DNA from: Bdellovibrionales bacterium | GTDB lineage: Bacteria > Bdellovibrionota_C > UBA2361 > SZUA-149 > JAGRAN01 | Direction: 5' to 3' | NCBI GenBank assembly: GCA_020434585.1 | Contig: JAGRAN010000032.1 | Coordinates: forward strand, 11,013-75,012 | DNA length: 64,000 nt | Shown: positions 33,001 through 36,000 of the stretch, in pieces | How positions within the stretch are numbered: the stretch's first letter is position 1 | How the letters are laid out: each line of letters opens with the position of its first letter | Position numbers: made by a program

Positions 33001-36000
33001 CGGCCCCGAGACCGCGACGGGTGGTATCGTCGATCGGGCAACCGCAATTAATATCGATGAAGTCAGCCCCGCTGTCCTCAATAATTTTGGCAGCTTCTAT
33101 CGCCTCTGCTGGCTGTTTGGCAGCAATTTGAACGCCGAAACATTCTTCAGAATCGTGCCTTCTGAGAAGGGCTCGCTCTTTCCTATCGCCTTTTGCGAGT
33201 TTCCTCGCATAGGCCATTTCCGAAAACGTGACATCAGCACCGAAATCCACGCACAGGCGGCGAAAGGGCAGGTTGCCGCCCTTTGTCAGCGGCGCCAACA
33301 CTAATGCACCCTTCAGTCTATCTTGCAGTTCTACGCGATTCATTGTTCAACCCGTCTCATAAGTGAAGTATGCAAAGTCGCTAAATAGAATCTATTCGTC
33401 AAGCGCACTTGTATGACTTCAACTTAAATAGCGTTTTGAATCAAATTTAACGCGAGCTGCGGCTGTAGATTAGCCTGCGCCAGAATTGACGCTGAGGCTT
33501 GCTGAAGTAAGTTCAGTTTCACGAATTTTGCGCTTTCACTCGCGATGTCTGCATCCATGATGCGAGATTGAGCTGCGGCGTAGTTCTCGACGTTGGTCGT
33601 TATAACATTTGCAGCGGTGCCTATTTTACTCTGGGTGGCGCCGATTCTGGCGACAGCCGAATTGATTCGAGTCAGGTTTTCTTTTAGTGAGGATAATGCC
33701 TGCAAAGCGCCGTATTGAGATGTTAGCGAAAACGCATCTTGGGCGAGCGACTCTACAACAACCGATTCCGTTACGTTTACGGTTGTATCCTGGATACGTA
33801 CGTTTACGTCCGCGCCGCTACCCTGAATGTTGTCGTCAACTCCATCGTTGTTCATGTCGGCCGTAACGCTTGCACTCAATTGATCTATGGTAACGTTGGT
33901 TCCGTCAAAGACGAATGCGCCCATTGAAAAGCCGCCGCCGCCAACTGTGTTGTTTGTAATAGTTCCGTTCGCTACGCCTATTCCCAGCGAGGTTATGTAA
34001 GCTAAGTTGACAATAAGGTCAGAGTCTCCGTCACTACCCGCATCCCTGGCTTGAGCGGTGACGTTGAAGTTAAGGAGCGCCCCAGAGTATATCGTATCGA
34101 ATCCTGTAGGTTCAACAACGGTGTAACCGGTTCCAGTGCTATTACCGAGAAGGAATCCGATGCTCGTTCGAATCGTGCTTCCCAAGTCTCTTGATTTTAT
34201 CGCCATAACATCGTCAATTCCGTCTAGATTAAAGTCGGCCACGATAAACTCTGGCCCAAAGTCAGCTGTAGCGACGCCGTAAGAGACGATGTTGTCAGTG
34301 TAAGTTCCAAGGCCGATTGATTCACTAACAGAGTCGATGCTGTTCTCGATGATGTCGGCTTGGATTGTGCCGTTTTCGCCGTAGCCGGCCTGCAGGTCTA
34401 TCGACGGTGCGCTGCCATCCAACAGATTGAGGCCGTTAAACTCAGTCGTATCAAGAATGCGTTGATATTCATCAAATAATCTTTGAGCCTCGAGATCTAA
34501 AGCGCCGCGCTGAGAAGGGGAGAAGATTCCATTTGCTGCCTGTTCGGCGAGTTCCGTCTGTCGAATTACGATATTCGACAACTGTCCGATCGCTCCTTCG
34601 GCGACAGCCAGCATTGACAAACCGTCGTTAAGGTTGCGCACGCCTTGGGTGAAAACTCGCCGATCTGTTTTGAGCCCACCGGCAACTGAAAGCCCAGCGG
34701 CATCGTCGGATCCGCGATTGATCCGCAGGCCACTGCTTAAGCGCTCCGAAACCGAATGCAGTTCTTTGCTTGTCTTAGACAAGCTTCGCTGCACGGTCAG
34801 CGCACTGATGTTGCTTCCAATGCGAACAGCCAAAGCAATCCTTGCTCTTTCCTGCGTCCATGCAAGAGTGCACAACAGCACATCGCCTGCATCGAGGCGG
34901 GTGCACGGACAACACTTCCAAAACTGAAACTACTAGTACTGCTAAAACATTAACTGCGAACTGCAGTATGCACCTCGAAGGAACGCCGTAATGTCAGGTG
35001 CAACACTCCTTAGGAAAATCGACTACTTAACATAAGAACTACAGAGTAATTTTAATGTCCGTGAACGGAGCTCGCCGGAGCTAAGCTACTCGATACCTAG
35101 GCCAAAGCGCGATCCGGAAGATGCATTAAATTAGTAGGTTAGGAGGGGATTGCTTGCCAGGCCGTTAGTCACGAGAAAGCGAACCGCAGTCTACACCGTC
35201 TTTCTTAACACCTTCAGGGCAGCCCTTTGAGCCGTCTGTCGTGCCCTTAGTGCTTTCTGTCGAGCCTCCGAGTGCATAGGCAGCACTCAGAAAGACCTGT
35301 TCGGCGTTGTCCTGAAGTCCTGGGGAGCTGGGGGTGCCGGCGACTGCACACAAGGCAATGGTTAGTCCACAAGCGATTACAGCTACGTAGTCAACTAAAG
35401 CCGCACCGCGCTCAGTGCGCGACATTGCCACATTTCGAAATCTTGAAATCAAAATTTCCTTTCCCAAATCAAACTAAAGATATCCTCGGCCGCTTGCTTC
35501 AGCCATTGCGAAAATGGAATAGCAAACACGCGGGATCTCTCCTACTAAGGAGTCTTGCAGATAATCAATAAAACGGAGTGGGAACTGTATAACTTAAGCT
35601 CATGGGGCAGCTAGAAGTGCCATTTGCGTTTTTTCTGTATGAATCTGTGCGTACAGAACAATAAGCGTGCTGAATGATGAGTTTAAGACACCTAGAATAA
35701 CCTTTCGTAGCTCTCTTTTCTAGGCGTAACGGGCAAGGCTATCAACAGTGAGGAACTAGAAGCGAGTCGTTTGACACCCGTACCAGGCAAGTTTTTAACC
35801 GCTTCGTCTGCTAAGCAGAATCCAAATAAAAAATGGCCCGCCAAGCAGCGCAGTGATAATGCCGACCGGAATCTCTGCTGGAGATGCAATCGTTCTAGCG
35901 GCGGCGTCGCAAAAAACAAGAAATGCACCGGACGCGGTCGCCGTGGCGGGAAGCAGCAGTGTCATTCTTGGACCGACAAGCTGACGGCAGACATGCGGCA

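Follow-up and report, generated by a model that had tools for sequence, protein, structure and literature searches.

Flagellin outer domains are where bacteria gain filament functions, among them adhesion, enzymatic activity, stiffness in viscous media and immune evasion. For outer domains of the propeller type the record to date amounts to one sentence and no experiment: an AlphaFold census of flagellin outer domains mentions 'WD40-repeats in cluster #55' and suggests their co-option from cellular proteins (Fields et al. 2024, PMC11532411). Better characterized are the flagellinolysins (PMC7643111) and giant flagellins (PMC6248924), in which the hypervariable region displays a foreign domain thousands-fold along the filament. 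Here we describe a solitary flagellin gene on the reverse strand (33424..34833) of a 64,000-nucleotide stretch of DNA, hereafter the window, from an organism labelled Bdellovibrionales bacterium (GenBank assembly GCA_020434585.1, contig JAGRAN010000032.1, positions 11,013 to 75,012). Judged from its sequence and modelled structure, the product is probably a functional FliC-type flagellin belonging to an old, conserved short subfamily of FG-GAP-propeller flagellins, with three propeller blades in place of the seven found in a longer paralogue in the same window.

The census cluster and the flagellins discussed here have in common a beta-propeller placed between flagellin D1 helices, and cluster #55 is probably the seven-blade long form. 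It was called WD40, however, and neither Ca2+ loops, FG-GAP identity, a partial propeller, genomics nor experiments were reported for it. The three-blade protein resembles flagellinolysins and giant flagellins in inserting a foreign domain into the hypervariable region, but those insertions are a metallopeptidase or DE repeats and have been found experimentally in filaments. The FG-GAP domains of integrin alpha, CRTAC1, PVL lectin, Vibrio cholerae Bap1 and Streptomyces UmbA are closed seven- or eight-blade propellers in receptors, lectins and adhesins; ours has three blades inside a flagellin. Full-text literature searches for flagellins with FG-GAP, VCBS, beta-propeller or propeller domains returned nothing relevant beyond the 2024 census, and two surveys of flagellin diversity make no mention of propeller flagellins, so that the three-blade subfamily, its FG-GAP and Ca2+-loop identity and its genomic pattern appear to be previously undescribed.

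The open reading frame (ORF) at 33424..34881 (-) would encode 485 residues if read from a GTG at 34881, and the initial annotation had left the start ambiguous between that codon and a TTG at 34833 with an AGGA ribosome-binding site. Comparison with homologues indicates that the latter proposal is right and that the true start is the TTG, giving a coding sequence of 469 codons that ends in a stop codon at 33424-33426. All 27 aligned short forms share this start column, which opens the motif M-x-[IV]-x-[IL]-G-x-N-[IV]; the 469-residue product coincides exactly, and over its full length, with NCBI protein KDD66_04115 (P0001, from a metagenome-assembled genome (MAG) labelled Bdellovibrionales bacterium) and is also called in two independent ENA assemblies; and AAGGA lies 5 nt ahead of the TTG. 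In the syntenic orthologue at locus L007, an in-frame TAG precedes the same TTG by 14 codons with no canonical start between, so the GTG extension is not one that could be conserved; the GAGCAAGGATTGCTTTG block there is identical in the window and L007. No homologue carries the 48-nt extension (34834..34881, -), which is non-coding and belongs to the 5' leader, and the GTG start is thereby ruled out.

Both ends of the protein match flagellin models, as the terminal motifs noted in the initial annotation had suggested: Pfam Flagellin_N (PF00669) scores 116.9 bits against a cut-off of 26.6 (E = 9.4e-34, residues 22-157 of the 485-residue ORF) and Flagellin_C (PF00700) 59.2 bits against 23 (E = 5e-16). 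The N-terminal D0/D1 helical region occupies 34411..34833 (-; residues 1-141) and the C-terminal D1/D0 region 33427..33717 (-; residues 373-469), the latter modelled as one long helix over residues 373-468. Identity as the hook-associated protein FlgL is ruled out by the higher score of the NCBIfam flagellin models (191 bits, against 84 for FlgL). A scan of GTDB genomes with the protein recovered only ordinary flagellins lacking an insert (from Magnetococcales, Nitrospinota, Gastranaerophilales and others) and no FG-GAP flagellin. These matches, with the substitution pattern given below, show intact helices of flagellin type in D0/D1, on which purifying selection is very strong.

Between the helices lies a central outer domain of 231 residues (33718..34410, -; residues 142-372), modelled as two long stalk strands and three four-stranded FG-GAP-type blades, each with one acidic loop. 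All three loop motifs that had been reported from inspection were located: DFNLDGIDD in blade 1 (34210..34236, -; residues 200-208) and DMNNDGVDD in blade 3 (33832..33858, -; residues 326-334) are of the canonical D-x-N-x-D-G-x-x-D Ca2+ type, and DAGSDGDSD in blade 2 (34018..34044, -; residues 264-272) is degenerate, with Gly at ligand position 3. The earlier description of the centre as a Thr/Asn/Gly/Val-rich, beta-type sequence is roughly right, the model being all-beta, but Asp and Ser outrank Asn in its composition (G 12.6, D 10.4, T 10.0, S 9.5, V 9.5, I 8.7, A 8.2 and N 7.4%); its net charge is -26.

The only other flagellin that tblastn finds in the window with the target protein as query is a long form of 645 residues, paralogue 1 (13729..15666, +), identical to a protein that NCBI lists for this 94-kb contig as 'VCBS repeat-containing protein'. 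Between its Flagellin_N and Flagellin_C domains Pfam reports seven FG-GAP_3 repeats (E = 2.4e-43, 147 bits), and seven DxDxDGxxD loops begin at residues 192, 245, 300, 350, 407, 454 and 505. The proposal that both genes belong, as paralogues, to a single propeller-flagellin family is borne out by alignment of their centres both pairwise and by profile, the two comparisons by which it was to be checked. With the helices removed, blastp aligns centre to centre at E = 7e-4, and in hhalign a profile of 18 short-form centres matches one built from paralogue 1 and 87 long-form centres at E = 1.5e-21 and 99.4% probability, with the alternative registers expected of repeats and with shared entry (LQAGYG..G) and exit (IQDT) junctions. 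A search of the PDB with the subfamily profile retrieved UmbA4 (2.1e-10), integrins alphaIIb and alphaV (5e-4 to 3e-3), CRTAC1 and PVL lectin; precomputed PF13517 matches exist for several orthologues; and an exhaustive profile search of 1.8 billion representatives returned, beside the short flagellins, thousands of multi-repeat FG-GAP proteins, giants included. Taken at the level of sequence, the centre is homologous to the FG-GAP propeller of paralogue 1 but has three blades only. The short form resembles the long seven-blade FG-GAP/VCBS flagellins in D0/D1 type, junctions, DxNxDGxxD loops, solitary multi-copy genes and occurrence in uncultured lineages; it differs in blade number, in a longer and irregular blade spacing (62-64 aa, against 47-57 aa in paralogue 1), in lying beyond the reach of the Pfam FG-GAP models and in forming a clade of its own.

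Structure prediction, the further check proposed for the centre, returned a confident all-beta fold: AlphaFold modelled the centre alone with a predicted local distance difference test score (pLDDT) of 84.6 and a predicted template modelling score (pTM) of 0.74. The two long strands read as a stalk that runs outward from D1 and returns to it, and each DxNxDG loop sits between strands 1 and 2 of its blade. The N-terminal long strand appears, from the DSSP string, to close blade 3. The target does not form a closed seven-blade propeller; the model suggests instead a half-propeller, an open arc with about three blades on a two-stranded stalk. A Foldseek search of the centre against the PDB gave no significant match.

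The initial annotation regarded the short form as a decayed version of the same insert, a description that its relatives contradict. Among the 28 proteins shorter than 530 aa in the first homology search, most were 36-72% identical to the target over nearly the whole query, and 25 formed one pure clade in a neighbour-joining tree built from D0/D1 columns only; the members of this clade, at least 25 in number, are 449-476 aa long. The exhaustive search likewise yielded about 16 clusters at 50% identity, proteins of roughly 450-476 aa with a single full-length match. The L007 orthologue is, like the target, 469 aa long and is 72% identical to it, at a distance where synonymous sites are saturated (proportion of synonymous differences, pS, 0.73-0.90). 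Across that distance the N-terminal helices have a ratio of nonsynonymous to synonymous substitution rates (dN/dS) of about 0.03, and the centre, with a proportion of nonsynonymous differences (pN) of 0.28, keeps 61% amino-acid identity and an unchanged length. Conservation within this clade of 25 reaches 87% at the ligand positions of the loops (1, 3, 5, Gly6 and 9), compared with 65-71% in the D0/D1 helices and 34% in the remainder of the beta core. Loops 1 (D200 96%, N202 88%, D204 88%, G205 96%, D208 100%) and 3 (D326 100%, N328 92%, D330 92%, G331 96%, D334 96%) are nearly invariant; loop 2 is less conserved (D264 64%, D268 64%, G269 68%, D272 80%) and is gone in more distant clade members. 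The window paralogues are only 52% identical in D0/D1, compared with 67-84% between the short form and its closer orthologues elsewhere, and the duplication is therefore older than those lineages. Loop counts among the 206 collected family members are bimodal, with 126 proteins at seven (and a tail at 5-6) and 27 at three or fewer. On this comparative evidence the short form is an old conserved subfamily and not a decaying copy, and a pseudogene is ruled out by the pN/pS ratio against L007, the 25-member clade and the loop conservation.

A separate sub-lineage (P0027, P0096, P0032 and P0119) carries near-identical 49-aa repeats (DFNGDGVLD) in 3, 5 or 6 copies, reflecting either rapid variation in repeat number or repeats collapsed during metagenome assembly. 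We set aside three-repeat truncations of the P0027 kind as a sign of a favoured blade number, because near-identical repeats of this length could be collapsed assemblies.

The genes of this family stand alone. A Pfam scan of all 49 ORFs of at least 150 aa and of 10 intergenic small ORFs, from a set with about 20 more that for the most part overlap one another, revealed no flagellar family beyond the flagellins, in agreement with the initial annotation; its remark that the target is an orphan, however, describes no peculiarity, since no examined family locus adjoins flagellar assembly genes and solitude is the family norm. Short forms at loci L003, L005, L006, L007 and L008 are all solitary among housekeeping genes, and the small ORFs beside orthologues gained no Pfam support as hidden FliS, FlaG or FliW. 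Synteny between L007 and the window runs from FecCD through a small ORF, the flagellin and Dus to the M17 peptidase. Long and short forms occur together in the window and in L005, where 3.7 kb separates them. Long forms number two per locus in L009 and L010, and six on one 58-kb contig (GCA_030431715.1, JAUIIO010000024.1; L034 6282-13703 and L035 10001-13649), four of these head-to-tail with 1-nt spacers, which is an extreme case of flagellin multiplicity. The MAGs from which the named members of the family derive are labelled Bdellovibrionales, Deltaproteobacteria, Proteobacteria, Pirellulales and, in one case, Candidatus Paceibacterota.

The immediate neighbours had been given as a Dus gene and a Flp-like pilin. 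The downstream Dus gene is confirmed (Pfam E = 9.9e-71). The upstream ORF (86 aa; 35165..35425, -) has no Pfam match, and the pilin label is plausible but weakly supported: the product has a Flp-prepilin-like motif (G-AALVDY, of the form G-x4-[DE]-Y), has an orthologue, 59% identical, at the same position in L007, and shares motifs with an L005 ORF that has a weak Flp_Fap match (2e-4). Another recurrent feature near FG-GAP flagellins is a DUF6502 gene with a small Flp-like ORF after it, seen in the window, at L005 (6917-8026), where the module lies between the long and short flagellins, and at L007 (7912-9636), just upstream of the short flagellin. The window holds two DUF6502 genes (45206-46018, -, and 51731-52546, -), the first copy being directly followed by a Flp-like ORF (44794-45069, -; Flp_Fap E = 0.013). 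This recurrence could be lineage-specific synteny or a functional link.

Promoters were scored against TAAA-N14-16-GCCGATAA, to a maximum of 12, in the 300-nt upstream regions of 12 genes of the family. Four genes reached 11/12 (the long form of L005, the short form of L006 and both long forms of L009), a score found in 0.6% of random 300-nt windows and nowhere on either strand of our window; these four promoters therefore connect the family with sigma-28 control in several of the genomes. Some 150-190 nt ahead of the target's start, a block at 34984..35023 (-) containing GTCGATTTT (resembling a sigma-28 -10 element), CCTAAGGAG and TTGCACCTGACATTACGGCG is conserved between the window and L007, with G(T/C)CGATTTT inside it and diverged flanks; it has no proper -35 element and no TAAA at the right spacing. 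A sigma-54-like reading by eye of its TTGCAC...TTAC stretch was dropped, both the GG and the GC dinucleotides being missing.

Closer to the start, the Shine-Dalgarno sequence AAGGA (34839-34843) lies within GCAAGGATTGC (34835..34845, -), a short hairpin with GGA in its loop. AGCAAGGA is placed at exactly -10 in four short-form orthologues (window, L007, L003 and L005) whose leaders have otherwise diverged and whose starts are non-ATG (TTG or GTG), and the GGA falls in a hairpin loop in three of the four minimum-free-energy folds. The leaders hold a further GGA motif, placed 12-23 nt upstream or, in the window (35006-35014) and L007, at -178/-176. This arrangement resembles CsrA binding sites on flagellin mRNAs, and the conserved hairpin around the Shine-Dalgarno sequence therefore suggests candidate CsrA-type post-transcriptional control, which is speculative; no csrA gene was found in the DNA of the window or the examined loci.

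Translation starts at the TTG, perhaps with its Shine-Dalgarno sequence held in the GGA-loop hairpin under CsrA-type control. If the protein is the filament flagellin that we consider probable, it would be exported unfolded through the flagellar type III channel and polymerized via D0/D1 into the filament core. Because a folded propeller cannot pass the channel, the acidic half-propeller would fold outside the cell; its invariant acidic loops suggest that Ca2+, probably bound at DxNxDGxxD, would stabilize it there. It would then decorate the filament surface alongside the seven-blade paralogue or paralogues, or in segments with them. FG-GAP propellers elsewhere are ligand- or glycan-binding modules, as in integrin alpha, Bap1, PVL lectin and the spokes of Umb toxins, and for this reason a Ca2+-dependent binding role, adhesive or surface-modifying, in a multi-flagellin filament is the most likely and most economical reading of its function, rather than a contribution to thrust. 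Several points weigh against this account. Ca2+ binding at the loops is predicted from motifs, as is any binding of a ligand by the centre; the centre alone stays below the Pfam cut-offs for FG-GAP (12.5 bits against 22.1, E = 0.15) and FG-GAP_3 (10.1 against 26.9, E = 1.3); the AlphaFold model is of a monomer and was built from only 18 sequences; and an isolated three-blade arc would be an unusual stable unit. No canonical sigma-28 promoter precedes either flagellin gene of the window (best score 8/12), none of the scanned ORFs of the window, and no gene within 10 kb of the examined family loci, encodes a flagellar assembly, cap, chaperone or hook protein, and no family member comes from a cultured, observed organism.

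These same points bear on the alternatives. The last three, together with the Flp-like ORF and the recurrent DUF6502/Flp-like module nearby and with the separation of family genes from flaG, fliD, fliS and hook genes in every context examined, would suit a flagellin-fold protein outside the filament, such as a soluble or surface adhesin secreted by a flagellar or another type III export system, or a junction- or cap-like minor component, in a genome perhaps without a motility flagellum. We think this unlikely: D0/D1 is conserved as expected of polymerizing flagellins, the sequence is closer to filament flagellins than to FlgL, near-perfect sigma-28 promoters precede four family members, tandem arrays such as that of L034 are typical of complex filaments, and scattered fliC genes are normal in Bdellovibrio. 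About equally doubtful, and if anything slightly more so, is the idea that neighbouring arcs, short with short or short with long, pair into a pseudo-six-blade or larger propeller or a continuous Ca2+-stapled sheath, so that the outer domain matures on polymerization. The dimerizing outer domains of enterohaemorrhagic Escherichia coli (EHEC) H7, enteropathogenic E. coli (EPEC) H6, Achromobacter and Sinorhizobium meliloti (PMC8931119) offer a precedent for the inter-subunit contacts that a half-propeller completed in trans would need, although their folds are unrelated to that of our centre. Against such pairing, AlphaFold is confident in the monomer, blade 3 is apparently closed by the N-terminal strand, and most outer domains are autonomous. 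Least probable by far is decay, in which a redundant copy of the seven-blade flagellin would have shed blades and be on its way to losing its function. Its FG-GAP signal below Pfam detection, a second loop that is degenerate here and absent in distant relatives, and three irregularly spaced blades instead of seven would fit such a history, but the frame is intact, the syntenic orthologue has equal length and a centre still 61% identical at saturated synonymous divergence, 25 short forms from many samples share the clade, loops 1 and 3 are nearly invariant in a confidently predicted fold, and the ancient D0/D1 split implies a copy retained ever since; decay is already largely refuted. A conserved filament flagellin remains the reading we prefer.

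The window has several other features. The region around paralogue 1 (6562-29327) is rich in surface-glycan genes, namely a GT2 glycosyltransferase (6562-7323), four SGNH/GDSL esterase-like genes (7332-8420, 8622-9692, 15719-16849 and 28143-29327), a Wzy_C O-antigen-ligase-like gene (21256-22965) and a PMT_2 gene (26666-28099); the island might serve flagellin glycosylation or the envelope polysaccharide. Several large ORFs on either side of paralogue 1 belong to no Pfam or NCBIfam family (11306-13300, -; 16891-18501, +; 18482-20083, +; 9701-11278, -), one of them with a sub-threshold TraU match (1.2e-5, 25.3 bits against a cut-off of 26.5). A Tad/Flp pilus locus seems to start where the window ends on the right (62595-63550, +), with a Flp-like ORF (Flp_Fap, 3.7e-4) and, after it, a TadE-like protein (4e-12). 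The M17 aminopeptidase gene (30558-32072, -) has a local GC content of 61%, compared with about 50% elsewhere, and a 499-aa ORF fully antisense to it (30663-32162, +) is almost certainly a compositional artefact.

For annotation, the labels 'VCBS repeat-containing' and 'hypothetical protein' hide flagellins of this kind, and the start codon of the target is corrected here. For the family, propeller flagellins emerge as proteins with FG-GAP (integrin-type) repeats and Ca2+-loop motifs, in a large multi-copy group met only in metagenomes. A half-propeller kept stably on a helical polymer raises the question of whether it is a finished domain or one completed between subunits; if neighbouring arcs do pair, filament assembly would create ligand-binding sites and stiffen the filament in a calcium-dependent manner. 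Interest in the family would rise if the arc were found to be completed in this way, or if the lineages that carry it prove to be without flagella.

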